A program made the translations under genes and the position numbers. Positions 7,627 through 30,126 of a stretch of DNA of 36,367 nt are shown piece after piece. The notes under the pieces are model-generated. The model did no database searches. It was not told the DNA's origin and saw nothing but the letters and a program-made list of their open reading frames with translations. Where the stretch lies: sequence record DRR723986_9819; one strand, 5' to 3'. The first letter of the stretch is position 1, and the number at the start of each line of letters is the position of its first letter.

Positions 7627-8403
7627 TTAGGCGGCGTCGCTCATCGCCGCTAAAAATTGATCCGTGCGCCAATTGACGGGTTTTTCCAGGTGATGCACAA
7701 AGTAACGCGAAAACATCTCGCGCAGCTCCTGCCAGGTCGCCAGCTCACAGGCTGCATCAAAGTCATTAATATCCTGGCATCGGGCCATGGACTGTAAATA
7801 CTGCAGCGAAGCGGGGCGCAGCTTCAGCGATCCTCCGCCCGGATATGATCCAAGGTGCGGCGCCAGCGGCGCTCCGTCAGCAAGCGACATTGTAAATGTA
7901 GCGCTGCTCCGCGGGTCAACGGCTTCTGAGCTGCGCGGACACAAGAGCGGATTCATTGCGATGCCCAGGAAATCCGTCAGCCCAAGGTAAAAATAGAGCA
8001 GCACACCTTTACAGCCATTCTGCGCAGCATTGAGCGAACGCATACAATCTTTTAGGAAGTCGTAGAGTTCCGGGTGCGGGTCGTCGTTTAGCTGCGTGTT
8101 GCCGATCACTTCCGCCATCGTCAGGCCCAGCGTCAATTTGTCAAATGAATCGGTGATTTCGCGGAACGCACTTGCCGTTTCCGCTTTGGCTGCCGTATGC
8201 AAATCTGCGTTGCGCCGTTTGTAGAACGAAATCTGGCTGCAGGCCAGTGGTTCCAGCGGCGAACCGAGGGCGCTTTTAGTGCGTCGTGAGCCTTTGGCTA
8301 CCAGCGAACATTTGCCGTAGTCGCGCGTGTAGACGCTCACCAGTTTACTGCTCTCGCGGTACTTGCGTGTTTTAAGTATTATCGCTTCAGTTGAGACAAT
8401 CAC
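7627..8403 (-). CDS. recO: DNA repair protein RecO
   Basis: N-terminal OB fold TEAIILKTRKYRESSKLVSVYTRDYGKCSLVAKGSRR..S.LGSPLEPL; 258 aa; GTG start. Confidence 0.9.
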   Translation of the reverse strand: MIVSTEAIILKTRKYRESSKLVSVYTRDYGKCSLVAKGSRRTKSALGSPLEPLACSQISFYKRRNADLHTAAKAETASAFREITDSFDKLTLGLTMAEVIGNTQLNDDPHPELYDFLKDCMRSLNAAQNGCKGVLLYFYLGLTDFLGIAMNPLLCPRSSEAVDPRSSATFTMSLADGAPLAPHLGSYPGGGSLKLRPASLQYLQSMARCQDINDFDAACELATWQELREMFSRYFVHHLEKPVNWRTDQFLAAMSDAA

Positions 8404-8637
8404 AATCTGTTAACTCCGCTGGGATGACCGCGAAAGACACGCACGCCCGGCTGATTTGTTGTTTGCATCAATAGCAGCAGCTGCACCTTGGCCTGTATCT
8501 ACATGTGTGATAGTAATGATTAAGGCCGGAACGCAGCTCTGATAGCTGAACGGCCACCAGCCGGGAGACTGTTCCGCAAAGCCAAAGTCTGGCAGTTTAT
8601 CCGCCGCATGTATTGACCTGCAGTACAGCCCGGTGCC

Positions 8638-8673
8638 AAAAAAAATGCCGGCCGGTGTGGTGTACCGGCCGGC
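8638..8673 (-). terminator. Rho-independent terminator (minus strand)
   Basis: Perfect 10-bp stem GCCGGCCGGT/ACCGGCCGGC (8647-8656/8664-8673) with 7-nt loop; A8 at 8638-8645 is the U-tract on the minus strand. Confidence 0.85.
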
Positions 8674-9095
8674 CAGAGGGAAATCGGGTCTATATCCTTA
8701 AAAGCGATTGCGGCATAAACACGGGATCAATTCCGATGTCGATCTGCCTACGGGTTGCGGCGGCGAACCCCGTAGAATCGAAATCGTACAATAACAACCT
8801 CCGTCCGCTGCGATGTCTCCGCGTGAAAGGTACATTCCGGGATCTTACGTAATGAACTTTCTGGTGCGGCCTCTGCTCCTGCGACTTATCATGGTCGTCA
8901 TATGGTTTGCGCGGGAGCTTACAGCGCTATGTAATTGAATTCTGAATCTGAAACCTTTCCGTCCTGTGTATGCTGAGGTCCGTGGTGGACCCTAGTCCGC
9001 AATAAGTGTCTTTTAATGTCATCGTCTCATAATGAGATGCTGACAAAGGCCGATATCCGCCTTTTGTGTTGAGGTAGATGGTTCGTCTCTCACAC
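8638..9095 (-). ncRNA. Candidate ~460-nt structured small RNA, GGA-rich (Csr/Rsm-like hypothesis)
   Basis: Bounded by the promoter at 9102-9130 and the terminator at 8638-8673; no convincing ORF; many hairpins; 12 GGA on the minus strand vs 4 on the plus strand (hand count), several in hairpin loops. Confidence 0.6.
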
Positions 9096-9101
9096 AGATG
9101 C

Positions 9102-9130
9102 AAACTACACATTGCCGCCGCAGCTATCAA
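9102..9130 (-). promoter_or_regulatory. Promoter TTGATA-N17-TAGTTT (minus strand)
   Basis: -35-like TTGATA at 9130-9125 and -10/-7-like TAGTTT at 9107-9102; same geometry as 18443-18471. Confidence 0.7.
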
Positions 9131-9214
9131 TCGGAAAAGGTCTGATTTTTAGCTAGGGTTTTGCCTGATTTGTCACTAAGAGTTTTCCCGATAAACTACT
9201 AGGGGTTTTTCTTA
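9131..9214. promoter_or_regulatory. Array of four 15-bp inverted-repeat operator boxes, 23-bp period
   Basis: TCGGAAAAGGTCTGA (9131), TAGGGTTTTGCCTGA (9154), TAAGAGTTTTCCCGA (9177), TAGGGGTTTTTCTTA (9200); all fit TMRG-N7-CYKA. Confidence 0.8.
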
Positions 9215-9262
9215 GTAAACCGTTCAAACGTGATCAATACTTAAGCCATGCCACAAAACAGA

Positions 9263-9293
9263 CACTGCGCAGTCAAATTCTGGCTGCGCAGTG
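9263..9293 (-). terminator. Probable terminator hairpin of the response regulator gene
   Basis: CACTGCGCAGTCA-N5-TGGCTGCGCAGTG 13-bp near-perfect stem ~50 nt past the stop at 9345, followed by TCTGTTTTG on the minus strand. Confidence 0.6.
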
Positions 9294-9344
9294 GAAATGT
9301 GCCTCTTGGCGTGTATTACGTTTGAGAATGAATCAATGCCAAAA

Positions 9345-9974
9345 TCAATCCACAAGGCGGTGCTTCATCGCATATCGAATCAATTCCGAATTGCTTTTAA
9401 GCTGCATTTTCTCCAGAATGTTACGCCGATGTGTATCCACCGTCTTTGGACTCAAATTCAGGTCATCTGCAATCTTCGTTGGTGTGCGGCCATTAGCCAG
9501 CAATCGGAAAATCTCGTATTCGCGATCCGAAAGCCGCTCATGCGGTGAATTGCCATCCCCAAATACTTCGCCTGCCAATCTCTCTGCCAGCTGTGCCGAA
9601 ACATACTTCCGGCCCGCCGTCACAGTTTGTATGGCAATAATCAATTCCTTGACGTCCAGATCAATGCTCAAACATCCGGCCGCACCGGCTTTGAAGGCGC
9701 GCATCGCATAGTCGTGTTCCGGGGTGACCGACAGCATTAATACTGGTAGTGACGGGAATTTCTGGCGAATTTGTTTCAAAGTTTGTAGGCCGCCACTATT
9801 GGGTAGGGCGACGTCCAGAATAACGACGTGAACTTCATTATTCTCCAGATAACGAAATGTTTCGTCATCGGTCTCTACCGTGCCAACCTGCATATCCTCA
9901 AGACTATAGTTGAGGTATAGTTTCAGGCCAACACGCAGAAAAGAATGTCCATCTGCAACCAAAACATGTGTCAT
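9345..9974 (-). CDS. NarL/FixJ (UvrY/GacA-like) response regulator, REC + LuxR HTH, with atypical receiver
   Basis: REC segment VVILDVALPNSGGLQTLKQIR..PVLMLS; HTH LSDREYEIFRLLANG..IADDLNLSPKTVDTHRRNILEKM; 209 aa; no kinase gene adjacent. Confidence 0.93.
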   Translation of the reverse strand: MTHVLVADGHSFLRVGLKLYLNYSLEDMQVGTVETDDETFRYLENNEVHVVILDVALPNSGGLQTLKQIRQKFPSLPVLMLSVTPEHDYAMRAFKAGAAGCLSIDLDVKELIIAIQTVTAGRKYVSAQLAERLAGEVFGDGNSPHERLSDREYEIFRLLANGRTPTKIADDLNLSPKTVDTHRRNILEKMQLKSNSELIRYAMKHRLVD

Positions 9975-10681
9975 AGTGCTTTTGTCCGAACGGCTCAGGG
10001 AGTCTGAAATCGTGCGGCGGAAAAAAGAGTCGGAGCGGGAATGCAGCGCTCCCTAATGTACAAAAAAATTAAATTACGGGCCGTAAACGTTTCTCGGTAT
10101 GTACCACCTTTTAATTAAGAGATGTTTCCCGATAGTAATCTGTGTGTCATAAGTCCATAAAAAACGGAAAATACGTACGCTAATTCGTGATATATCTAAA
10201 CCCTTAACACACAAAAAGGACTCATCTGCAGCGGTAGAGTCGCTAAATTCCCTGAATCCGTCAATAGAAATGTGATTCGCACTCGTTGCAAACAGGCCCA
10301 CGTTTCTATTGGGTGAATTAGTTGTTGCTAATACCTTTCGATTCATTGACTATTCGATCACTGCTATTGCATGTAACCGGGACGGGCCGACTGGTGAGAA
10401 CAACCTTCCTGCCGCAGGTGAGCACCCCAAAATGTAGCGCTCAGTGGGAAGATACACAAGTGTTGTCTCGGCGAAGCTGCCAAGGCTTTAACTTTGTTTG
10501 CAGCGTCAAATCCATTGGAATGCGCCCTTTTACAGTAGCCTTGTTCAAAAGGTGCTGATATTTTAATGCAATGTGGCAATTCGTTACCGTTCAATCAAAA
10601 AAATTTAATTTTTGGGCCTTCTCATTATGGGCTTTGGCATATCGCTTGCCCAATCTTTTCGGCACCAATCGTTTGATAGAC

Positions 10682-10712
10682 TTTGCAATCAGCACCCGGC
10701 GGGCTAGTTTTG
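10682..10712 (+). promoter_or_regulatory. Bacteroidota-type promoter TTTG-N19-TAGTTTTG upstream of the DUF885 gene
   Basis: Matches the -33 TTTG / -7 TAnnTTTG consensus, 46 bp before ATG 10759. Confidence 0.6.
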
Positions 10713-10758
10713 CAGCAGGAAAATATAAAGATATCAACTGCTACGTAACAGGTGTTGC

Positions 10759-18358: not shown

Positions 18359-18442
18359 TAAGGGTTTTTCTTATGCTAATCTCAGAAAAACCCTTAGAAC
18401 AAATTAGGGCAAACACTTAGGGTAAAATAAGGGTTATGCTTA
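18359..18442. promoter_or_regulatory. Second array of four 15-bp operator boxes, 23-bp period
   Basis: TAAGGGTTTTTCTTA (18359), TCAGAAAAACCCTTA (18382), TAGGGCAAACACTTA (18405), TAAGGGTTATGCTTA (18428); all fit TMRG-N7-CYKA. Confidence 0.82.
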
Positions 18443-18473
18443 TTGCTTCACGCGCTGTAAAGAACTAGTTTTG
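18443..18473 (+). promoter_or_regulatory. Promoter TTGCTT-N17-TAGTTT(TG) facing the PKS cassette
   Basis: TTG starts immediately after the last box; TAGTTTTG (TAnnTTTG) at 18466-18473. Confidence 0.72.
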
Positions 18474-19276
18474 CATGCGACTTACGGAACGGTTTAAGAA
18501 CGCGATAGTGGAAGTCATTATCGACGGGAAAGAAACCAACAACTAAAGCAAGATCGTTCCACATAACTTTTGACATTTAGAGAAAGTTTGCTTGTTTTCC
18601 TCGTTGAGACATCACTGCCGATCAAAACGAGAAAAACGCTCTGGGGAGAGTTGCCACTGCCAATGCGCTACCTCTCCAGTTCGAACACCAGCCCTTCGTT
18701 CACATACTTTCTTGAATTTGATTTTTTGCGTACACTGAAGAGAGCCGGAAATAAATCGGAATCCACCAGGTGGGGAAGTTGCACTCCAGCAGTGACTTTA
18801 CCACGGACCGAACAAAGCAGCACACTCATGTAAGTTTACCTTGATGTGAATTTGCGACTGCTATTTCTTCTGGTTAATTCTCGTGTTATACCCTGGTTGA
18901 TCATTATCATGTGCCATTGTGTTTAATTAAACACAATAGCCATACACACGATCCCGGATTACTTGCCTGCGCACTTCGACGGAAGCAGCGTGCGGAGGCA
19001 GGGTGGAAGGGGTGCGTGCCGAACTAAGGCGGAAAGGGCTGCGTCACAAAGCCAAGGAACTACTGTTCCTGGCCGACGATCACACTATATATTACTGTTT
19101 AACTTTTGGTGAGATTACAGTGATCACGTTAGAGTGTGAGCCGCATTAAGTCGTTGTAATGCGCTAGACATTGACGATAGACTGTAACAGATATATCTCT
19201 AAACCCATGCGTATACAAGGCATACGGGCCATTGCCGCGTGCGCTCACTTTTGACCCCGTATCGACAAAGGGAGTT

Positions 19277-21151
19277 ATGAAACAAGCTAAATCTTCTGTA
19301 CCAATAGTGGCGATGATCGTCCTTCTGCTGACGGGATCCTGGATTCTGCGTCCCGTTGAAGCAGAGCTACCTGACCTTGGGATTACATTTACGGAAGTTG
19401 CTGAAGAGGCTAACTGTTTAAATCAACATACTAAAGTTGAGTTGGCTTCGCGCTTTGAAAACATTATGCCCTGGCTCTCCTCAGTTGGAGCAGCCGTGGC
19501 AACTGGAGATTTTGACGGCGATGGATTTGTGGATTACTACGCCACAAACTGCGGCCGTGACTCACATAACCGTTTATACCGCAACCGTGGCAATGGAACG
19601 TTTGAAGATGTTGCAACTGCCTGGGGCGTAGCCGACTACAATGGCGTCGGCGCTTCTATGGATGCCGTTTTTCTGGATTTTGACAATGACGGTGACGAGG
19701 ACTTGTATCTGGTCAAATGGGCCGCCACAAATGTTCTGTTTGAGAATGTTGGCGATCGCTTTGTTGACCGTACAACCTCCGCCGGCGTTGGATTCTGGGG
19801 CTACGCTAATTCCGTGGTAACACTGGATTACGACCGTGACGGCCTGCTGGACATTCTGGTTGGAAATTATTTTGCTGAAGAAGTTCAGGATGAAAATACC
19901 GGACAGCTTGTCCGCAGTGATCTTTGGGATCCCGTATCGTCAAAAGTCATGCACGCCACATTTACGCACGCCACGAATGGTGGCCGCAATGTACTCTACA
20001 AAAACAACGGCAACGGAACCTTCCGTGACGTGACGATGGAGACGGGCATTGGGCACACCGGCTGGACGCTGGATATCGGCGTTGGCGATCTTAACAACGA
20101 TGGCTGGACGGATTTGTACGTATCGAATGACTTTGGTGCTGACGAAATCTACTTTAACACCGGTGCTACATCCGAGACGACAACATTCACGATTCATATC
20201 GATCCGGACGGACATCCGGGTGCCGGTAATGACTGGTGGAAAGGCATGAACTGTGATATCGGCGATGTTAACAATGATGGCCGTCAAGACGTGTACGTCA
20301 CAAACATCCTGGCACATCGCTATAAAACCGATGAGGGTAACATGCTGTGGTTAAACACAGCACAGGATGATATGGAAGGCGGAGTTAAATTCAGCAATAT
20401 TGGCAAAGAAGTAGATGTACACGATGGTGGCTGGGGTTGGGGCGGTCGCTTCTGCGATATGAACAACGACGGCCTGATGGACATCTTTGCACTTAACGGT
20501 TTCGCCACTGGTAAAGACCGTGACAACACTTATTGGTTTGCGTTGCAGGAAATGGTAACACAAACCAAAAACAACGCTTCTGATACAGAAGTATGGCCCG
20601 ATATGGGTGATCGTGATTTGTCTGGACATGAACCAAGTCGCTTGTTCATTCAACGTCCTACCAGCGAAAGCCAACCCGAGTTTATTGAGTATGCAGAGCT
20701 GGCGGGAATTACCGACCTGTACAACGGTCGTGGAATCGGTCTTGCAGACTATGACAATGATGGAGACCTGGACATGTATATCGCCAACCAGGGTGCGCCA
20801 AGTTGTTTGTACCGCAATGAAACCGGCAACACATCCGGCTCCTGGCTGGGACTCAAGCTGGTCGGACGTCCTGACGCACCAAAGCAGATTGATGGTCGCA
20901 TGTACGCTACCACCATGAATGCTGCAGGCGCACGCGTAGAGGTTTGGGCCGGTGGTCAGTACCATGTTAACGAACAGAACGAAGTCAATGGTTTTGCCGG
21001 TCAGGGAGACCGCCGCCTGCACTTTGGTCTGGGACAGGTTAACGAAATCGAACGGATCGTAATCTCGTGGCCAAGTGGGCGCACTACCACGATGGAAGGT
21101 GGCGATGTATTAGCCATTAATTCCTACCACGAGATTGTAGAGACGATCTGA
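19277..21151 (+). CDS. unbV: Enediyne cassette protein E4/UnbV (CRTAC1 family: FG-GAP/VCBS repeats + ASPIC/UnbV domain)
   Basis: Repeated DFDGDG/DFDNDGD/DYDRDG/DLNNDG/DVNNDG motifs; GWGWGGRFCDMNNDG; DLSGHE; C-terminal GFAGQGDRRLHFGLG..ISWPSG; N-terminal signal/anchor; SD GGGAG before ATG 19277. Confidence 0.88.
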   Translation: MKQAKSSVPIVAMIVLLLTGSWILRPVEAELPDLGITFTEVAEEANCLNQHTKVELASRFENIMPWLSSVGAAVATGDFDGDGFVDYYATNCGRDSHNRLYRNRGNGTFEDVATAWGVADYNGVGASMDAVFLDFDNDGDEDLYLVKWAATNVLFENVGDRFVDRTTSAGVGFWGYANSVVTLDYDRDGLLDILVGNYFAEEVQDENTGQLVRSDLWDPVSSKVMHATFTHATNGGRNVLYKNNGNGTFRDVTMETGIGHTGWTLDIGVGDLNNDGWTDLYVSNDFGADEIYFNTGATSETTTFTIHIDPDGHPGAGNDWWKGMNCDIGDVNNDGRQDVYVTNILAHRYKTDEGNMLWLNTAQDDMEGGVKFSNIGKEVDVHDGGWGWGGRFCDMNNDGLMDIFALNGFATGKDRDNTYWFALQEMVTQTKNNASDTEVWPDMGDRDLSGHEPSRLFIQRPTSESQPEFIEYAELAGITDLYNGRGIGLADYDNDGDLDMYIANQGAPSCLYRNETGNTSGSWLGLKLVGRPDAPKQIDGRMYATTMNAAGARVEVWAGGQYHVNEQNEVNGFAGQGDRRLHFGLGQVNEIERIVISWPSGRTTTMEGGDVLAINSYHEIVETI

Positions 21152-21281
21152 CAACCACACTATGACATATAGATGCCTGCCGTGCAGTGTGTTGCGCGAA
21201 AAAGAAACAAGCACACGGCGGCAGGCGATTTTATCTCACAAGCTTCGCATTTCAACAACGCTATTGAACGGAGATACTACC

Positions 21282-22295
21282 GTGAAATTCAAAATTATCG
21301 GCGTCGTCGCAACTATCGTCGTAGTTGTCCTTGCCATCTTTGCCTACCAACGTGCCGGCATTCTGGACCTTCCCGAAGTACCACAGGACTTAACAGCCGA
21401 CATGGTTGGTCTTGGAGGAATTGATACGCTGCGTTTTTCGCAGAACAAACTTGATTCTGGATCTTACTTCGGCGGTGTCAATGATAAAGGCACGGCAGTT
21501 ATGGCTATGGGCGCAGAACAGTTCCGCAAGGGAACATATGAGCGCGGACTGGAAGTGATGCGCATGGGCTTTAACTTTGACCCGAATAACCTGGCCCTGG
21601 GTAATGCCTTCCGTCTGTGTGTACTGGAAGCTCAGCGTGACTATTTGCGCAAGGCGGCCAAGGCGCGTCAACAGAAAGTGCGTCTGCCAATTTGGTTAAA
21701 CAATGAACCACGCCGGACCTTTGACAGCCGCTATAGAATTTACCGCTCGCGTGAGCTGAAATTCCAAAACGCGATGGCACTTGTAGACAAGATGCTTTTA
21801 TATCCCGCGCTAGAAATCAAGGCGCCTGCCAGCGTTGAAGCCGTAGAGTTATTGACGGAGATACTCGAAGAAAATAATGGAGAGAACAAATACTACGTTC
21901 CGGCGCTGTTTGCCCGTGGGCTGAACTATTTGTACCGGCCGGCAAATCTGGAATGGCCGGAAACGATTAAATCCTCCCCTACAGCTGCCAGTGATGATTT
22001 GGCGATGTGTGTGGCAATTGGTCAGGTCGTAGGTGTGGGTTCTGATGAACTTAAAGCACGCCTCTCGATGACGCTGGGTGACGCACATGTTAAGGAAGGT
22101 AACATCTCAAAAGGACGCTCATGGTGGCAAATCGCATACAACCTTAACAAAAGTGATAAGGCGTTTGCAGCTGAGATTAACGAGCGTACATCCTGGAAAG
22201 ATGATGAAGCAGGTGACAAGCTTGAGCGCCTGCTCGAACAACAAATGAATAATATTGCAAAACCGCTTACCGATATGAGGTTCATGTGGAAATGA
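21282..22295 (+). CDS. Membrane-anchored helical/TPR-like hypothetical protein inside the cassette
   Basis: GTG start after GGAGA; N-terminal TM; TPR-like segments (..GLEVMRMGFNFDPNN.., LGDAHVKEGNISKGRSWWQIA); ATGA overlap with the next gene. Confidence 0.7.
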   Translation: MKFKIIGVVATIVVVVLAIFAYQRAGILDLPEVPQDLTADMVGLGGIDTLRFSQNKLDSGSYFGGVNDKGTAVMAMGAEQFRKGTYERGLEVMRMGFNFDPNNLALGNAFRLCVLEAQRDYLRKAAKARQQKVRLPIWLNNEPRRTFDSRYRIYRSRELKFQNAMALVDKMLLYPALEIKAPASVEAVELLTEILEENNGENKYYVPALFARGLNYLYRPANLEWPETIKSSPTAASDDLAMCVAIGQVVGVGSDELKARLSMTLGDAHVKEGNISKGRSWWQIAYNLNKSDKAFAAEINERTSWKDDEAGDKLERLLEQQMNNIAKPLTDMRFMWK

Positions 22296-23203
22296 ACGCC
22301 ACAGCCCCAGCGGCTCAAAAAACATCACCGGCGCCAATGAAATTTGTGTTGCCAAAATTGCGAGACCCACGCGTGACGCTGCTGTGTATCCTTGGAACAT
22401 ACACGGCACTGGGGCAGTTCGTCTTCTACTTCAACGTAAGTATGGAGCAGCTGCTGTTGACAATTGGTGTGACAGGAGGTTTGGACTTCCTGATTACCCT
22501 GTTTAAGCGTCGCCGCATAGAAATACCACTCAGCGGAATCATTACAGGCCTTAGCCTGGGCCTGCTGCTTGAGTCATACAGCAGCGTCATCTTTGTTGTT
22601 GCTGCCGTATGGTCAATTGCTTCAAAGTACTTGATCAAGTACAAAGGCGTGCAGGTGTTTAACCCGTCAAACTTCGGTATCGTAGCAGCGTTGTTGCTGA
22701 TGCATGGAACTGTAACGGTCGCTCCCGGCTCACAATGGGGTAGTGAAATTTTATACTCCGTCATCGTGCTTTCTTTTGGCCTGATGATGAGCTGGCGTGT
22801 TAACAGGCTGCCGCTTGTATTGGGTTGGGCAGGTGGATTTGTATTGATGGGACTGGTGCGCATGTCGCTCGGGCAAGGTGGATTAATATTCGTGCTTGGG
22901 CCAATGACGGGCGCTGAGTTTATGCTCTTTACGATTTCGATGGTACCTGATCCCAAGGCTTCACCTAAACACGTTGTGACGCAGGTAGTTTGGGGACTTT
23001 CGATTGCGCTGATTGATGGAGTGATGCGCTTCAGTGAGATGCGTTTCTCAATGTTCTACGCTCTGTTTATCCTTTGTGCAATTCGCCCATGGTTTGAAAG
23101 TGCCGTTGAACGGATATTTAACCTGGCCGAAGACCAGCGTGCTTGGACAGGTGGTAACGCCCGCCAGCCTGCCGCAGTTTTGAAGGATAAGGCCGCCGCC
23201 TGA
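22292..23203 (+). CDS. unbU: Enediyne cassette protein E5/UnbU-like membrane protein (RnfD/NqrB-like)
   Basis: Multi-TM; ITGLSLGLLL, SIASKYLIK...QVFNPSNFGI, FTISMVPDPKASP; located in the PKSE cassette. Confidence 0.8.
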   Translation: MNATAPAAQKTSPAPMKFVLPKLRDPRVTLLCILGTYTALGQFVFYFNVSMEQLLLTIGVTGGLDFLITLFKRRRIEIPLSGIITGLSLGLLLESYSSVIFVVAAVWSIASKYLIKYKGVQVFNPSNFGIVAALLLMHGTVTVAPGSQWGSEILYSVIVLSFGLMMSWRVNRLPLVLGWAGGFVLMGLVRMSLGQGGLIFVLGPMTGAEFMLFTISMVPDPKASPKHVVTQVVWGLSIALIDGVMRFSEMRFSMFYALFILCAIRPWFESAVERIFNLAEDQRAWTGGNARQPAAVLKDKAAA

Positions 23204-23289
23204 TTTCCACCTGAAATCATGCAGACAAAAATGTACACCAAGAATGTGCGGCAGCTCAGCAACGGCTGCCGCCGAAAGGAAACACTACT

Positions 23290-24252
23290 ATGATCGGTTC
23301 AGTGATGGCCTGGTGGATCGGACGCCTGATAGATAATATGCGTTTTCCCAACCAGGGTCCGGGAGGAGAAGAAACAACACGGCAGGTAATGCAGTCCTTC
23401 GGTGCTGGTGCTAAACTGGGACTGCGCAACAAGTCTTTGGAACAAGTGCGTGCCTATTCAGATAACCTGCCGTGGAGCCACCGTGCGTTTTACCACGAAG
23501 GTCATGCAATGGGTGTTGCTGCGCGATGTGCTATGCGTCTTAAGTCCGGCACTCCGGAAGCAATGTTTGACTATGAAGAATACCGCCTGATGCGCTATGT
23601 CGGTTACGGTTTTTGGAACGGAGCAACCACAAAGTATCCCGCGCCAAAAATGGATGAGACAAGTGCACTCTGGGGCGATGAGGAGACCTGGCAGAAGTAC
23701 CGTCTGCTGATGCCCAACGGCTTTGGTTTCTCTACAGTGATGTTTCGCGGTGTTTTTGATGACTCTGCAATTGCAAGCATCGAACAACTCGGTGACGAGG
23801 AATCGCGCGAAGCAGCATACCATGGCGTCGGTCGTGTTTTGTGGTTTCTCTACATGCACAACTATGATGAGTTAAACAGGATTCTGAATCAACAAGTCTG
23901 GCGCAGTGAGCCGCTTGCAATCGGTTTGGGTTTGGCAATGGGGTTTACCCAGGTCGCTATGCCGGATGCCGTTATGCGCGCCGTTGACCAGATTGACGAA
24001 CGCCACCGTGAAAACGTTCTGCGCGGAGTTGGAATCGCCCTGGAAACACATGCCAGCAATAGCCCGGAGGGGCGCATTCAGGTTGAGCGATCAGTATACG
24101 GTGAGTTGCGTCTCCGTTATGACATCGCCCTGGAAGCGACTGCTTCAGGAACGGGAGAAAACTGGTACCGCCTCTATCACGAAAACACGCGCCGGAAATC
24201 TCGCGCGGAATTTGCGCAGGCCATGTCAAATGGCGCGGCCGTACGACGTTAA
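23290..24252 (+). CDS. unbL: Enediyne cassette protein E3/UnbL (DUF1702 family)
   Basis: AFYHEGHAMG, YVGYGF, NGFGF, GVGRVLWF, GLGLAMGF, GVGIA motifs; 320 aa; directly upstream of pksE. Confidence 0.8.
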   Translation: MIGSVMAWWIGRLIDNMRFPNQGPGGEETTRQVMQSFGAGAKLGLRNKSLEQVRAYSDNLPWSHRAFYHEGHAMGVAARCAMRLKSGTPEAMFDYEEYRLMRYVGYGFWNGATTKYPAPKMDETSALWGDEETWQKYRLLMPNGFGFSTVMFRGVFDDSAIASIEQLGDEESREAAYHGVGRVLWFLYMHNYDELNRILNQQVWRSEPLAIGLGLAMGFTQVAMPDAVMRAVDQIDERHRENVLRGVGIALETHASNSPEGRIQVERSVYGELRLRYDIALEATASGTGENWYRLYHENTRRKSRAEFAQAMSNGAAVRR

Positions 24253-24294
24253 ACATCAAACCTCACTCGGTCGGATCTCTCAAGGAACACAGAA

Positions 24295-27200
24295 ATGACA
24301 ACATACAACGATCACGACATTGCAATTGTCGGAATGGGCTGCCGCTATCCAGATGCGGAGTCACCGGAAGATTTACTTAACAATACCCTCGCGCATCGTC
24401 GTGCCTTTCGTCGGTTTCCCGATGAGCGCCTGCGCCTGGAAGACTATCATTCAATGGATCGCAGCTTAGCCGATAAAACCTATGCTACGGAAGCCGCCGT
24501 CCTGGAAGGATTTGAATTTGACCGGATTCGCTATCGTGTGGCCGGCAAGACATTCCGTTCGGCCGACATGGCACACTGGCTGGCATTGGATGTAGCTACG
24601 CGTGCGCTCTACGATGCGGGTTTCCCGGACGCGGAAGGCTTGCCACGCAAACGCACCGGCGTAATCATCGGCAACACCTTAACCGGTGAATTTTCGCGTG
24701 CCAATATCACACGACTGCGCTGGCCGTATGTACGCCGCGTTATGGAGTCCGGTCTTCGTGAAGAAGGCTGGTCTGGCGAAGAGATTGGAATGTTTCTGGC
24801 GCGCATGGAAAAACGCTTTAAGAAACCCTTTCCCGAAATTGCCGAAGAATCACTGGCAGGTGGCTTGTCAAATACCATTGCCGGGCGCATCTGTAATTAC
24901 TACGATTTGCATGGCGGCGGATATACTGTAGACGGTGCCTGTGCTTCCTCACTTCTGGCAGTCGTAACCGCCTGTAATTCACTTGCTGCCGGCGACATAG
25001 ATGTAGCCATGGCCGGTGGTGTTGACCTTAGTCTTGATCCATTTGAAATTGTTGGATTCGCTAAAACAGGCGCGCTTGCAGCAAATGACATGCGCGTGTT
25101 TGAAGAGCGCTCAGCTGGATTTTGGCCCGGTGAAGGTTGCGGTTTTGTAGTGCTGATGCGCTACGCAGATGCCGTCAAGGGCGGTCATCGTATTTACTCT
25201 GCCATTCGCGGCTGGGGCATTTCTTCTGACGGCTCTGGTGGTATCACTCGACCCGAAGTTGAAGGCCAACTGCAAGCTGTTAATGCCGCCTATGATAAAG
25301 CCGGATACACTGCCGATAGCGTAACGTTCTTTGAAGGGCATGGCACCGGAACTGCGCTTGGTGATGATACCGAACTTAAAACTTTAACGCGTGCGGTTCG
25401 TGAAGCGGGCGCGGCTTATGGTCGCAGCTACATTGCTTCTACCAAAGCAAATATTGGACATACTAAAGCTGCTGCAGGCGTGGCCGGTTTAATTAAGGCA
25501 ACAATGGCCTTAAACAAACAAGTGATTCCGCCACTGACAAACTTGGAGCGCTCTCACCCGGTAATCGCCGATGCCGATGGTATGTTGCAGACTGTTAACA
25601 AAGGAATCTCCTGGCCGGAAGACCGGCCGCTGCGCGCAGGTGTCAGCGCAATGGGGTTTGGTGGAATTAACACACACTTAACGCTCGAGAATCCAGCGGA
25701 AGATCGCCGTAGTGGATTTACGGATTCCGAACAATCTGTTTTGCGTTCTGCGCAAGACTGTGAGCTATTTGTATTCGGTGGAGCTGATCGGGACGAACTG
25801 CGCACAAAAGTGAATCAAGTTGCCGACTATGCCGAAAAACTTTCGCGAGCACAACTTGCCGATCTGGCGCACACCCTGTTTAACGAACTGGACGCTGATG
25901 CGCCCTTCCGTGCGGCCGTAGTGGCAAACCTGCCATCCGAATTGGACACGCGCCTGCACAAAGTTCTTGAGCTGATGGACTCGGGCGTAACAGAGCAGAT
26001 TGATGTTGGTGATGGAATTATGCTGGGCAGCTCGGATCAGGTTCCACGTATTGGCTTCCTGTTTCCTGGTCAGGGGGCACCGGCGAATCTGGATGGTGGA
26101 ATTTTCCGCCGTCGCTTTGATTTCATCGATGAGCTGTATGACCGTGCGAATTTGCCAACAGGTGTAGATGGTGTTGCCACCGACGTAGCGCAGCCGGCGA
26201 TTGTAACCGCCTCCCTGGCTGGAATGCAGCTACTGCAGCAGCTGGGAATTGAGGCCGACTGTGGTGTTGGGCATTCGCTGGGAGAAATCAGCGCACTTGG
26301 CTGGGCCGGCGCGGCAGACGAAGAAACTTTAATGCGGGTTGCACGTGCACGCGGTCGGGCTATGGCCGATCTTGGCAGCCCTACAGGTGCCATGGCCAGC
26401 CTTGGTGCTGGTCGCCAGCGTGTTGAGCGCTTGTTAAACGGACACGACACTGTAATCGCAGGCTTAAACTCCTCACGTCAAACCGTTATTTCCGGTGAAC
26501 GTGAGCTGGTGCATGAAATAGTTAAACGCGCCAAAGCCGCCGGAATCAGTGCCGTACCGCTGCAGGTATCACATGCTTTTCACTCACCGTTGGTAGCTGC
26601 CGCCGTTCCCGTACTTCAGGATTACATTAACACTGAGTCATTCAAGAATCTGGAACGGACGGTGTATTCAACAGTTAGTGGTAGCGAGCTGGAAAAAGAT
26701 GCCGACATTGTTGATCTGCTTGGCCGCCAGGTGACGCATGCCGTGCGATTCGTTGAAGCGGCAGGTAAAGCGATGAACGATGTCGATTTGGCAATCGAAG
26801 TCGGTCCAGGGAAAATCTTGAGTGGCCTCGTTAGCGACTACGACATTCCAACGATTTCACTTAACGTTGGCGGCTCTTCGTTGCGCGGTTTGCTGCACGC
26901 CGCCGGCGCTGCGTTTGTATTGGGCGCCAAGCCAAACTTAAACACGCTGTTTGACGATCGTTTTGTACGGCCTTTTGTTCTTGACTGGCAGCCGAGCTTC
27001 CTTGTTAACAATTGTGAGTTGGCGCCACTATCACATGGTCTTCCGGCACATTTTCAATTGGAAGAAGAGTCCGCCGATACAACGGATCTCAACGGTGTTA
27101 CTGATGGACCGGCCAATGGCGCCGCGACTGATGCTTCGCCGCTAGATACAATTCGGCGGCTGGTGGCTGAACGGGCTGAATTACCTTCCGAAGCGATTAA

Positions 27201-30126
27201 TGATGGCGACCGCATGTTAACAGACTTGCACCTGAACTCAATTGCCGTGAGTCAACTGGTAATTGAGTCCGCCAGAGAACTGCAGGTCGATCCGCCCGCC
27301 AACCCAACGAATTATGCCGATGCTACCGTGCAAGAAATTGCCGATGCTTTGAGTGAACTGGGGCAGGGCGGTGAGACACAACACAAGGTTGTTCCCAAAA
27401 TCCCCAATGGCGTAGACACCTGGGTACAGTCCTTTGCGGTTACGCAATTTGAAGAAACAGCGCCGCCTGCGCCACAAAACGCAGAGGCGGCCGAATGGAA
27501 ACTAAGCACCCCTGCCGGGTACACGTTGGAGGAAGCGTTACGCACGCGGCTCGATCGCGCTTCGGGTACTGGCGGCAGCATCGTCTGTTTGCCGACGAAT
27601 CCGGATGAAGTTGCTGTGGAACGCCTTCTGAGCGCCATGCGTGAATTCCTGCATTCAAGGCAAACCGCGACTTTCGTCTTGGTGCAACACGGTGGGGGAG
27701 CTGCTTCTATGATTCGGACGCTTCAACTTGAAGCGCCTGAAGTTAATACTGTAGTTGTAGATGTTCCCCTGGATGCGCCTGCGGCGGCGGATTGGATTGT
27801 CCATGAAGCCGTAACAGCTGACGGACACCGCGAAGTTAACTATGATAGTTCAGGGCGCCGCACAGTACCGCGTTTAACTTTGTACCAGGGTGCTGAACCA
27901 GTTGACGAAAAACCACTGAGTTCTGAGGACGTTTTGTTGGTGACCGGTGGCGGCAAAGGTATTACGGCCGAATGTGCCCTGATCATCGCCCAGGAGTCCG
28001 GCGCTAAACTCGCTTTGCTGGGGCGCTCGCGTCCGGATAGCGATACAGAACTCAAAGAGAATCTGGAACGAATGCAGGCTGCGGGTTGCAATCTGCGATA
28101 CTACTCAACAGACATCACGGATTCTGACAAGCTGGTTGCCACATTGGATAATATCCAGTCTGAGCTGGGTGCCATAACAGCCATTCTGCATGGTGCCGGT
28201 GCCAACAAGCCCAAACTTATCCAGGCGCTGGAAATGGAAGACTTCCGCCGCACTCTTGGACCAAAAGTATACGGGCTGCGCTACATTCTTAAACATCTTG
28301 ATGCTCAAAACATCAAAATGTTAATCTCCTTCTCATCCATCATTGCCCGTTCCGGCATGCACGGTGAAGCTGATTACGCGCTGGCCAACGAGTGGTTAAC
28401 ACGGATGACTGAACAGTATGCCACTGATAACCCACACGTTCGAGCCCTCTCAATCGAATGGTCGGTCTGGTCCGGCGTCGGAATGGGGGAACGCCTCGGT
28501 GCTGTTGAAGCCCTGATGCAAAAAGGCATTACGCCAATTTCCCCGGATGCAGGTATTGCCATAATGCGCGATTTAATCTGCGCACGCGGCAGTGATGTTG
28601 CACTGGTTGTCTCTGGACGATTTGGCGATTCGCCGACGCTCGTTTTTGACCGTCCCGAATTACCTTTCCGCCGCTTCCTTGAAAACACGCGTTTCCATGT
28701 GCCCGGCGTAGAGCTGATTGTAGACAGTGAGCTTTCGCTGGAAAATGATCCCTACTTAAACGAACACGTCTTCCGCGGTGAGCGGCTGTTGCCTGCCGTT
28801 GTAGGAATGGAAGCCATGGCGCAGACAGCCATGGCGCTGCGTGCCACCGAACAGCAACCATGGTTTGAAAATGCTCAGTTTCATCGCCCGGTTGTTGTTT
28901 CCGAACGCAATCCTCAGCAAATACGAGTGGCTGCGATCGCAAGAAGCGCTGACGTAGTTGACGTTGTACTGCGTTCTGCCGAAAGTAATTTTCAGGTTGA
29001 TGTGTTCAGCGTTCGTTGCCGTTTTGATGCACGACCCGAACTCTCACCAGTCGATGAAAACTTTGTTGAAAGTGCACCTGCAGAAATGACACATGTGCAG
29101 ATTGATCCGGCCACAGATTTATATGGTGGGATTTTCTTTCACACCGGGCGCTTCCAGCGTGTACGCTCATACCGCTCACTGCATGCCACGCGTGCCGTTG
29201 CGGAAATTGACACGACTCCAGCCGGCAAGTGGTTTGGGCGCTATCTGCCGCAAACACTGGTGCTGGGTGATGCAGCCGTGCGCGATGCCGTAATCCATTC
29301 GATACTTGCATGTCTGCCGCACGCAACCTTGTTGCCAATTGGTGTTGACGCATTGCTCCCGGCTATGCAGCCGCATGAGGGACCCGTGTTTATCCATGCG
29401 AACGAACGTTTGCGCGAAGACAAACTGTTTATCTACGACGTGCGCGTTACCGATGAACAGGGCCGTATTCTGGAGCGCTGGGATGGCTTGCGCCTGCAAA
29501 TGATCGCGGAGAATCCTCCAAGTGATGCATGGGTTGAAGCTCTGCTGGGGCCATACATGGAACGCCGGGTTGGCGAACTTGTAGAAGGTGCCAACTGCAG
29601 GGCTGTTGTCCAGCGCGACACCAGTGATGATCGCCACACAAATAGCAATGCGGCAATTCAACGCGCCCTTGGATCCGAAGTGTCCATCATGCGACGCCCA
29701 GATGGGAAACCGGAGTTGCTCAATGATGCTCGTGAAGTCTCAGCGGCACACTCTTCCGGTTTAACATTTGCTGTGGCAGGCGAAGGTCCGCTTGGATGTG
29801 ACCTGGAGCCGGTTGTTGCACGACCAGCACAATTGTGGCGGGACCTGCTCGGTGCCGAACGTTATCAGCTTGCAGAGTTACTGGCACGTGAACTGAATGA
29901 GGATGCCGACCTTTCCGCCACACGCGTGTGGGAAGCCGGTGAGTGTTTAACAAAGGCGGGAGCTCTTCCTAATGCTCCGCTGGTGTATCACTCTTCAACA
30001 GTTGACGGATGGGTTCTCTTTGCATCCGGTTCTCTTGTAGCCGCCACCTATGTTGGGCCGCTGCGAAATTCAAAAGGTTTAACAGCATTGGCTATTCTGG
30101 TCAGGAGGATGAATGAAAGCGTTTGA
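24295..30126 (+). CDS. pksE: Enediyne-type iterative type I polyketide synthase (KS-AT-ACP-KR-DH-PPTase)
   Basis: 1943 aa; KS DGACASSL/EGHGTGT/NIGHTKAAAG with GEFSRAN..RLRWPYVRR; AT GHSLGE and HAFH; internal ACP DLHLNSI; KR TGGGKGIT..YALAN; DH HVFRGERLLP; C-terminal PPTase GCDLEPV..RVWEAGECLTKAG. Confidence 0.96.
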   Translation: MTTYNDHDIAIVGMGCRYPDAESPEDLLNNTLAHRRAFRRFPDERLRLEDYHSMDRSLADKTYATEAAVLEGFEFDRIRYRVAGKTFRSADMAHWLALDVATRALYDAGFPDAEGLPRKRTGVIIGNTLTGEFSRANITRLRWPYVRRVMESGLREEGWSGEEIGMFLARMEKRFKKPFPEIAEESLAGGLSNTIAGRICNYYDLHGGGYTVDGACASSLLAVVTACNSLAAGDIDVAMAGGVDLSLDPFEIVGFAKTGALAANDMRVFEERSAGFWPGEGCGFVVLMRYADAVKGGHRIYSAIRGWGISSDGSGGITRPEVEGQLQAVNAAYDKAGYTADSVTFFEGHGTGTALGDDTELKTLTRAVREAGAAYGRSYIASTKANIGHTKAAAGVAGLIKATMALNKQVIPPLTNLERSHPVIADADGMLQTVNKGISWPEDRPLRAGVSAMGFGGINTHLTLENPAEDRRSGFTDSEQSVLRSAQDCELFVFGGADRDELRTKVNQVADYAEKLSRAQLADLAHTLFNELDADAPFRAAVVANLPSELDTRLHKVLELMDSGVTEQIDVGDGIMLGSSDQVPRIGFLFPGQGAPANLDGGIFRRRFDFIDELYDRANLPTGVDGVATDVAQPAIVTASLAGMQLLQQLGIEADCGVGHSLGEISALGWAGAADEETLMRVARARGRAMADLGSPTGAMASLGAGRQRVERLLNGHDTVIAGLNSSRQTVISGERELVHEIVKRAKAAGISAVPLQVSHAFHSPLVAAAVPVLQDYINTESFKNLERTVYSTVSGSELEKDADIVDLLGRQVTHAVRFVEAAGKAMNDVDLAIEVGPGKILSGLVSDYDIPTISLNVGGSSLRGLLHAAGAAFVLGAKPNLNTLFDDRFVRPFVLDWQPSFLVNNCELAPLSHGLPAHFQLEEESADTTDLNGVTDGPANGAATDASPLDTIRRLVAERAELPSEAINDGDRMLTDLHLNSIAVSQLVIESARELQVDPPANPTNYADATVQEIADALSELGQGGETQHKVVPKIPNGVDTWVQSFAVTQFEETAPPAPQNAEAAEWKLSTPAGYTLEEALRTRLDRASGTGGSIVCLPTNPDEVAVERLLSAMREFLHSRQTATFVLVQHGGGAASMIRTLQLEAPEVNTVVVDVPLDAPAAADWIVHEAVTADGHREVNYDSSGRRTVPRLTLYQGAEPVDEKPLSSEDVLLVTGGGKGITAECALIIAQESGAKLALLGRSRPDSDTELKENLERMQAAGCNLRYYSTDITDSDKLVATLDNIQSELGAITAILHGAGANKPKLIQALEMEDFRRTLGPKVYGLRYILKHLDAQNIKMLISFSSIIARSGMHGEADYALANEWLTRMTEQYATDNPHVRALSIEWSVWSGVGMGERLGAVEALMQKGITPISPDAGIAIMRDLICARGSDVALVVSGRFGDSPTLVFDRPELPFRRFLENTRFHVPGVELIVDSELSLENDPYLNEHVFRGERLLPAVVGMEAMAQTAMALRATEQQPWFENAQFHRPVVVSERNPQQIRVAAIARSADVVDVVLRSAESNFQVDVFSVRCRFDARPELSPVDENFVESAPAEMTHVQIDPATDLYGGIFFHTGRFQRVRSYRSLHATRAVAEIDTTPAGKWFGRYLPQTLVLGDAAVRDAVIHSILACLPHATLLPIGVDALLPAMQPHEGPVFIHANERLREDKLFIYDVRVTDEQGRILERWDGLRLQMIAENPPSDAWVEALLGPYMERRVGELVEGANCRAVVQRDTSDDRHTNSNAAIQRALGSEVSIMRRPDGKPELLNDAREVSAAHSSGLTFAVAGEGPLGCDLEPVVARPAQLWRDLLGAERYQLAELLARELNEDADLSATRVWEAGECLTKAGALPNAPLVYHSSTVDGWVLFASGSLVAATYVGPLRNSKGLTALAILVRRMNESV

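Follow-up and report, generated by a model that had tools for sequence, protein, structure and literature searches.

A conserved non-coding RNA gene beside an orphan NarL/FixJ-type regulator, and a candidate operator that it shares with a polyketide synthase cluster

The regulatory RNAs that come closest to the one described here are CsrB/CsrC and RsmX/Y/Z of the BarA-UvrY and GacS-GacA circuits, RNAIII of the Staphylococcus aureus agr system, and the sRNAs OmrA/B, MgrR and Qrr. CsrB is about 370 nt in length, and the site recognized by GacA is a palindrome. RNAIII is about 0.5 kb long, lies beside the regulator gene, carries tandem direct repeats for that regulator in its promoter and is Hfq-independent, and OmrA/B, MgrR and Qrr are two-component-dependent base-pairing sRNAs, with the Qrr1 gene adjoining luxO. 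The passages of PMC7652899 that deal with CsrB give it 22 GGA motifs and about 18 bound CsrA subunits, and those that deal with fliW describe this gene as absent from Gammaproteobacteria and anti-correlated with BarA-UvrY. In Porphyromonas gingivalis, according to the part of PMC8757827 that treats it, the response regulator PG0720 directs an RNA antisense to a capsule locus.

In this study we analyse a stretch of 36,367 nt from sequence record DRR723986_9819 (the window), in which a 941-nt gap (8404–9344) separates recO (7627–8403, minus strand) from a response regulator gene (9345–9974, minus strand). An initial annotation, made from the letters alone, had placed in this gap an ORF-less, terminated and structured unit of ~460 nt and had proposed that it was a Csr/Rsm-type sRNA. 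The coordinates and the anatomy were right. We find that 8638–9095, minus strand, is a real gene for a strongly conserved non-coding RNA of ~450 bases, here called RNA1, with a predicted length of ~380–460 nt across species. It ends in an intrinsic terminator (8638–8673, minus strand), as strong as had been claimed, whose stem (8673–8647) has 10 pairs, 9 of them G-C, and a loop of 7 and is followed by AUUUUUUUU down to 8638; the terminator is conserved in sequence as well as in shape. The hairpin that had been noticed between the unit and the regulator gene is there too (9263–9293, minus strand): 10 bp followed by the U-rich run UCUGUUUUG can be read directly in the sequence, and our terminator scan missed it because its loop is 11 nt long and the scan accepts loops of 3–8 nt. 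Standing between the regulator stop codon and the RNA1 unit, it is likely to be the terminator of the regulator gene.

Relatives of the locus came from a RecO-based scan of species genomes, which returned the loci L002 and L001 (RecO 72% identical). Gene order in L002 is as in the window (regulator, gap, recO), and the L001 sequence ends 375 nt upstream, so that the regulator region is missing there. A third species (genome G021, locus L008) has an orthologue of the regulator and shares the upstream block, the 3' blocks and the terminator; its middle differs, and its downstream gene is a transglycosylase-like ORF, not recO. Because L008 has this other downstream gene, RNA1 is seen to travel with the regulator gene and not with recO, and the pair, with RNA1 immediately behind the regulator gene, is kept at all three loci where upstream DNA is present. 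Positions 8639–8862 of the window are 85.7% identical to L002 over 230 nt, RNA1 is 88.9% identical to L008 over 90 nt, and in our alignment of the 3' ~225 nt of RNA1 (A3) the two related species show 83% and 69% identity; the upstream block (9092–9212) is 80.2% identical to L002 over 121 nt, and the 230 nt between the two conserved blocks are not alignable. As a neutral yardstick, four-fold degenerate sites in the regulator gene and in recO show only 27–51% identity, which is near random, and the invariant runs in the 3' domain of RNA1 reach 19–50 nt. RNA1 is thus conserved well beyond neutral sites and therefore by more than chance; as judged from these alignments, its 3' ~200–225 nt are under strong purifying selection.

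The unit had also been credited with a promoter of its own. A sigma-70 scan finds no minus-strand promoter at 9095–9135, but two promoter-like boxes on that strand, TCCGATTG at 9135–9128 and the -7-like GTAGTTTGCA (listed as TAGTTTG) at 9107–9101, are invariant in three species and are found again, together with the repeats described below, at other loci. We take these boxes to resemble the Bacteroidota TAnnTTTG type, and we predict a start site at ~9090–9095. Within the conserved block 9092–9212 stand three tandem candidate operator units of ~23 bp (9140–9212, minus strand; consensus aGgnAaaccCTTAGnnnaAAATCAGan), with PWM scores of 12.9, 31.7 and 32.5 against a best score of 14.7 in 50 shuffles, and from the end of the last unit to the second promoter box of RNA1 there are 34 nt. 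These elements bear on the question of whether RNA1 is an independent gene at all or instead belongs to one of its neighbours, either to the regulator gene as a long 3' UTR or read-through product or to the gene downstream as a cis-acting leader or attenuator. RNA1 does lie on the same strand as both neighbours, and the L002 terminator stands only ~70 nt before recO; against this, a hairpin and U-run follow the regulator stop codon, RNA1 is set off from the regulator gene by a conserved operator with promoter boxes, L008 has a different downstream gene, and the 234-nt spacer before recO in the window is unconserved, so that such a dependent status seems very unlikely to us. With its terminator, promoter boxes, lack of a shared ORF and indels, RNA1 has the features of an independent unit expected of a regulator-dependent trans-acting sRNA, the transcript itself being a predicted one.

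The indels also bear on coding. The conserved part of RNA1 contains indels of 1–2 nt, and among the ORFs of the homologues none is conserved in start, stop or peptide (the ORFs in the three RNAs are 45, 119 and 53 aa long and differ in start, length and peptide); because of these indels and the lack of a common ORF, coding is excluded for RNA1. We also observe, at 8790–8805 (minus strand) and at the homologous sites in L002 and L008, a Shine-Dalgarno-like GGAGG, AGGAGG or GAGGAG followed after 6–8 nt by TTG, TTG or ATG, respectively; the peptides that would follow it are 35, about 34 and 19 aa long and unrelated. A translated, conserved small ORF had been named beforehand as something that might explain the unit, and a small protein starting 6–8 nt past the AGGAGG-like motif would be the form of this idea that the motif, present in all three RNAs, speaks for; since the three peptides have no common sequence, the 1–2 nt indels shift the frames and tblastx-style matches arise in all frames, we regard it as extremely improbable. 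ARAGORN finds neither tRNA nor tmRNA, in line with the absence of tmRNA signatures noted at the outset. The Infernal/Rfam search that had been suggested as a check yields no family match at gathering score over the whole window and, at E≤10 within 8300–9500, the bare terminator hairpin as the sole match. Our narrow literature searches found no description of RNA1. RNA1 founds a new family within a general kind already known, the regulator-linked regulatory RNAs.

Variation and constancy alternate along the RNA. The 5' half (8863–9095, minus strand) is not alignable across species, gives no blastn match and contains no terminator, and in one public contig (X7) 265 nt of it are swapped for 214 other letters. 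Then follow, on the same strand, the conserved block A (8806–8862), which contains the invariant CCUUUCACGCGGAGACAUC, a variable central hairpin domain (8727–8805; helices 4 and 5 of our model), and the conserved block B (8674–8726; UCCCGUGUUUAUGCCGCAAUCGCU ... UAUAGACCCGAUUUCCCUCUG), with invariant stretches of 24 and 21 nt in four sequences. Four public DNA runs contain relatives' copies of RNA1; they cover the conserved parts only, and the stretches left uncovered are no evidence. Run X2 has no differences over 8806–8857 and has 120 other letters in place of 8695–8805 (111 nt), and the central domain of L008 holds a hairpin set different from that of the window. Taken together, homologues and DNA runs thus give an RNA that begins with a variable 5' half, has blocks A and B on either side of a variable hairpin insert, and closes with a conserved terminator.

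Folding and covariation, likewise suggested beforehand as a check, agree with a structured RNA. The 457-nt RNA1 folds at -135.3 kcal/mol (z = -2.35), with none of 100 shuffles as good. An RNAalifold consensus scored on four sequences has 92.8% of cells paired. Five pairs are changed on both sides, a number reached by 7 of 500 shuffles, and they sit in the two central hairpins (four pairs, window against L002) and in the terminator, helix 9 of the model, where pairing is 100% and one pair is compensatory. These figures are inflated, since the consensus was built on the very sequences that it was scored on, only three of which are independent. The two long-range helices that join blocks A and B never vary and so offer no covariation to judge by. 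Extra differences in runs X1 and X3, placed by hand, fall in a loop or in linkers of the model, and one of the run differences, 8783 U>C, breaks one model pair.

RNA1 has a narrow distribution, among a few uncultured bacteria. A covariance model of its 3' domain (R1) matches three of the four genomes of the relatives' family; in a 151-genome sample of the order it finds these three again and one further match that is weak, at 21.4 bits. A search by blastn across the order matches 6 of the 151 genomes, of which 3 are real and the other three are 26–35-nt matches. In a metagenome scan an exact 23-mer from block B had 0 matches, and a second scan, made with the regulator alignment, returned 13 loci, none of which carries RNA1 and of which the closest is 40% identical. 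The fourth family genome (G029), a 3.4-Mb assembly that is possibly incomplete, is without RNA1, the regulator orthologue and the operator, and has csrA. As to the lineage, the initial annotation had spoken of a phylum other than that of the gammaproteobacterial systems, and this is borne out: the circuit lies outside the Gammaproteobacteria, because T9SS C-terminal sorting domains are abundant (at least 150 in each of 2 related genomes, G001 and G021, against none in 14 control genomes), Hfq was not found in any of the four family genomes, and the promoter boxes are Bacteroidota-like. The relevant part of PMC12398890 describes T9SS as specific to the FCB superphylum. The public record of L001 is labelled as an uncultured Hyphomicrobiales bacterium, and its genome (G002) belongs to the same family as G001 and G021; because these two have the T9SS domains and Hfq was found in none of the three, the label looks wrong.

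The operator is not confined to RNA1. Its pattern matches four times in the window against 0.08 expected, and in G021 the strict unit has 13 matches against 1 for a reversed control. At ≤1 mismatch in the 151 genomes of the order there are 8 matches in G021, 1 each in two others and none in G001 and G002, whose sites need 2 mismatches, beside 6 single control matches; because only G021 stands out at one mismatch, this is a partial test of the co-occurrence of operator and regulator. Adjacency and co-occurrence together lead us to predict that the adjacent regulator binds the repeats at 9140–9212. NarL-family proteins usually bind inverted repeats, whereas the repeats here are direct.

A second triple operator heads the other notable locus of the window. 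This array (18361–18433, plus strand) has PWM scores of 12.2, 21.1 and 25.3, where the highest score in 50 shuffles is 14.7. It is followed by a TAGTTTTG box at 18466–18473, the whole spanning 18361–18473; 34 nt separate the end of the third unit from the box, a spacing identical to that of the RNA1 promoter. It heads a conserved leader of ~750 nt before an FG-GAP/UnbV gene (19232), the first of a polyketide synthase (PKS) cluster, and this leader is taken as non-coding because reading frames shift between its conserved blocks; array and leader (18361–19276) occur at the syntenic place in G001 and G002 with 68% identity over ~1.05–1.1 kb. RNA1 and the PKS cluster thus have in common an operator, albeit a candidate one, as members of one regulon would. 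The tie to an enediyne PKS that had been proposed from the first reading therefore stands in an indirect form, through the shared triple operator, and the enediyne type itself was not confirmed. The cluster (19232–30126, plus strand) encodes a 1943-aa KS-AT-KR-DH PKS with UnbV_ASPIC and DUF1702 neighbours, a set that presumably fits an enediyne-type cassette; as an enediyne synthase the PKS was tried without confirmation, the only NCBIfam matches being those to generic type I PKS and PfaA models, below their cut-offs. When RNA1 was compared with the PKS leader for similarity or complementarity, the best matches were 8–10-mers, within the range of shuffles, and RNAduplex energies of the pair were no better than with shuffled leaders.

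Other operator loci were seen in the related genomes. At seven further G021 loci (L029–L034, L037) the operator lies just upstream of a promoter-like box and 350–850 nt upstream of ORFs, mostly with signal-peptide-like N-termini, among them one with an SdrD_B domain and two paralogues; because no terminator stands between operator and ORFs there, long leaders seem typical of the operator's regulon. A second operator-driven ORF-less unit, RNA2, is ~380 nt long, has its own terminator and is followed by a convergent gene; it is found at L074 (G001:C64:127700–129300, reverse strand, about 390–771 of the reversed locus), at L075 in G002 and at L030 in G021, and is not present in the window. Its terminator stem has compensatory changes between G001 and G021. 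RNA2 has 1.0–2.1 GGA per 100 nt and no similarity to RNA1, and a search of its loci against Rfam gave nothing credible.

The regulator gene (9345–9974, minus strand) encodes an orphan NarL/FixJ-type response regulator of 209 aa with a receiver and a GerE helix-turn-helix domain (Pfam Response_reg and GerE). It had been described as UvrY/GacA-like, which is right as to type, the UvrY/SirA/GacA model (NF007018) being its best NCBIfam match, and not as to orthology, since it scores 136.1 bits against a cut-off of 280 and the MctR model comes nearly equal at 130.5 bits. Compared with VraR and NarL, its receiver has Gly for the second Asp of the acidic pocket (VADGH) and Ile for the conserved Lys (LSID), and both substitutions are invariant in the 3 orthologues. 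In the window no kinase gene adjoins it. The atypical receiver and the lack of an adjoining kinase suggest that the regulator may be controlled otherwise than by ordinary phosphotransfer. Orthologues, at 92% and 80% identity, are found only in G001 and G021 (the G002 copy would fall past a contig end), and the next best match in the 151 genomes of the order has ≤44% identity. The 784-nt gap upstream of the regulator gene (9975–10758) is 66% identical to L002 over 673 nt, and no operator unit scores there.

How far, then, does this locus resemble the Csr/Rsm systems? The likeness is one of layout: the RNA has no ORF and ends in an intrinsic terminator, an activating site lies upstream of its promoter, and its presumed activator belongs to the NarL/FixJ family; there is also a link to secondary metabolism and possibly more than one RNA with the same upstream site, if RNA2 is counted. 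The differences are that RNA1 has neither GGA enrichment nor an Rfam match, that CsrA of the relatives appears to be paired with FliW and the regulator is atypical, that the RNA1 operator consists of direct 23-bp repeats which also head protein-coding genes, and that the RNA1 gene adjoins the regulator gene. On the original proposal, a GacA/UvrY-like regulator would switch on RNA1, and RNA1 would act as a sponge whose loop GGA motifs titrate CsrA. A csrA gene is present, one per genome, in all four family genomes, the top NCBIfam model of the regulator is UvrY/SirA/GacA, and three GGA/GGAG sites, some predicted to be unpaired, are kept in all homologues. The window RNA1 also has 12 GGA on the transcribed strand, as had been counted, and 5, not 4, on the opposite one.

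The modest GGA enrichment drawn from these counts did not survive, however, for 12 lies within the range of shuffles. Of 1000 dinucleotide shuffles (mean 9.4, sd 2.1), 15.3% have at least as many, as do 3.6% of the mononucleotide shuffles, and the count is not convincingly above chance; L002 and L008 have 7 each against dinucleotide-shuffle means of 6.0 and 7.4, counts reached by 39% and 69% of shuffles, and L002 has 9 GGA on the strand opposite to RNA1. Density is 1.7–2.6 per 100 nt, as compared with the 22 motifs that the cited part of PMC7652899 gives for CsrB. The three GGA loops quoted at the outset are present in the sequence, but two of them are not conserved: the first falls in the 5' half, which is not conserved, and neither L001 nor L008 retains the third. 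A look at csrA and GGA in the relatives, also proposed beforehand, thus gives csrA throughout and only three GGA sites common to all homologues, with mean unpaired probabilities at GGA sites from 0.00 to 0.80, which falls short of the many loop GGA motifs of the Csr/Rsm RNAs. Nor does RNA1 match any Rfam Csr/Rsm family, at gathering score or at E≤10. The csrA of the relatives sits behind fliW (directly so in G001), the gene that PMC7652899, in the part cited above, reports as anti-correlated with BarA-UvrY; the regulator is far under the UvrY/GacA cut-off with an atypical receiver, and G029 carries csrA without RNA1. A Csr/Rsm-type sponge is, on these grounds, a most doubtful reading of RNA1, and a modest GGA count beside a LuxR-type regulator is insufficient for calling a Csr/Rsm RNA.

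Other systems offer closer parallels in some respects. Like RNAIII, RNA1 is long, adjacent to a regulator gene and preceded by tandem direct repeats, it would act independently of Hfq, and its C/U-rich UUUCCCUCU resembles anti-Shine-Dalgarno loops; unlike RNAIII, it has a NarL/FixJ-type and not a LytTR regulator, no conserved peptide such as delta-haemolysin, a C-rich stretch that the consensus fold predicts as paired, and no targets found in the PKS leader or in three genomes. With OmrA/B, MgrR and Qrr it has in common an sRNA placed within a regulon and an operator common to it and protein-coding targets, as well as the adjacency seen for Qrr1 and luxO, but RNA1 is four to five times longer, has no Hfq to work with and carries a very long invariant 3' domain. 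The PG0720 case, so far as the cited part of PMC8757827 describes it, is alike in that a Bacteroidota-type response regulator acts through RNA and different in that its RNA is antisense to the capsule locus, whereas RNA1 is without an evident antisense partner.

Our preferred reading, to which we give about an even chance, is that RNA1 is a lineage-specific regulatory RNA that forms one arm of the regulon of the adjacent regulator. The regulator would bind the 23-bp repeats and activate transcription from about 9090–9095, and RNA1, whole or processed to its conserved 3' domain, would act in trans, post-transcriptionally and without Hfq. As a committed guess, invariant single-stranded stretches such as the C/U-rich GAUUUCCCUCUG would pair with the 5' regions of mRNAs. 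A search of G001, G002 and G021 for extended antisense sites or extra copies of the three invariant blocks gave none above controls besides the RNA1 gene itself.

Alternatively, RNA1 may serve as a platform for an RNA-binding protein or enzyme other than CsrA, which would be sequestered or guided through the invariant blocks and the terminator. The invariant stretches of 19–50 nt and the sequence-conserved terminator exceed what a pairing seed needs, and this excess length favours a role in protein binding or tertiary structure; the variable insert tolerated between blocks A and B, the absence of antisense targets in the PKS leader and the three genomes, and the absence of Hfq point the same way. 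Yet no candidate protein emerged and no repeated motif of the sponge type is present, and we hold the platform to be possible rather than probable. As mechanisms, Hfq-independent pairing appears slightly more likely than capture of an RNA-binding protein, and the two are close. A more speculative and rather unlikely elaboration is that the orphan NarL-type regulator, probably phosphorylation-independent, works largely via RNA1 and RNA2. By sequestering an RNA-binding protein, which might be the FliW-type CsrA, the two RNAs would place the enediyne-like PKS cluster and the secreted proteins under a single signal. If this sequestration were true, a Gac/Rsm-like architecture would have arisen independently outside the Gammaproteobacteria.

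FCB (Bacteroidota-like) lineages lack Hfq, and their RNA regulators are poorly charted. The locus described here offers a compact and plausible circuit made up of an orphan regulator, a 23-bp operator, one or two long RNAs and a PKS cluster with the same operator. If the link between regulator and operator is true, the operator and RNA1 could serve to activate a silent biosynthetic cluster of an uncultured organism, and the invariant 3' domain of RNA1 would point to the partner of the RNA.
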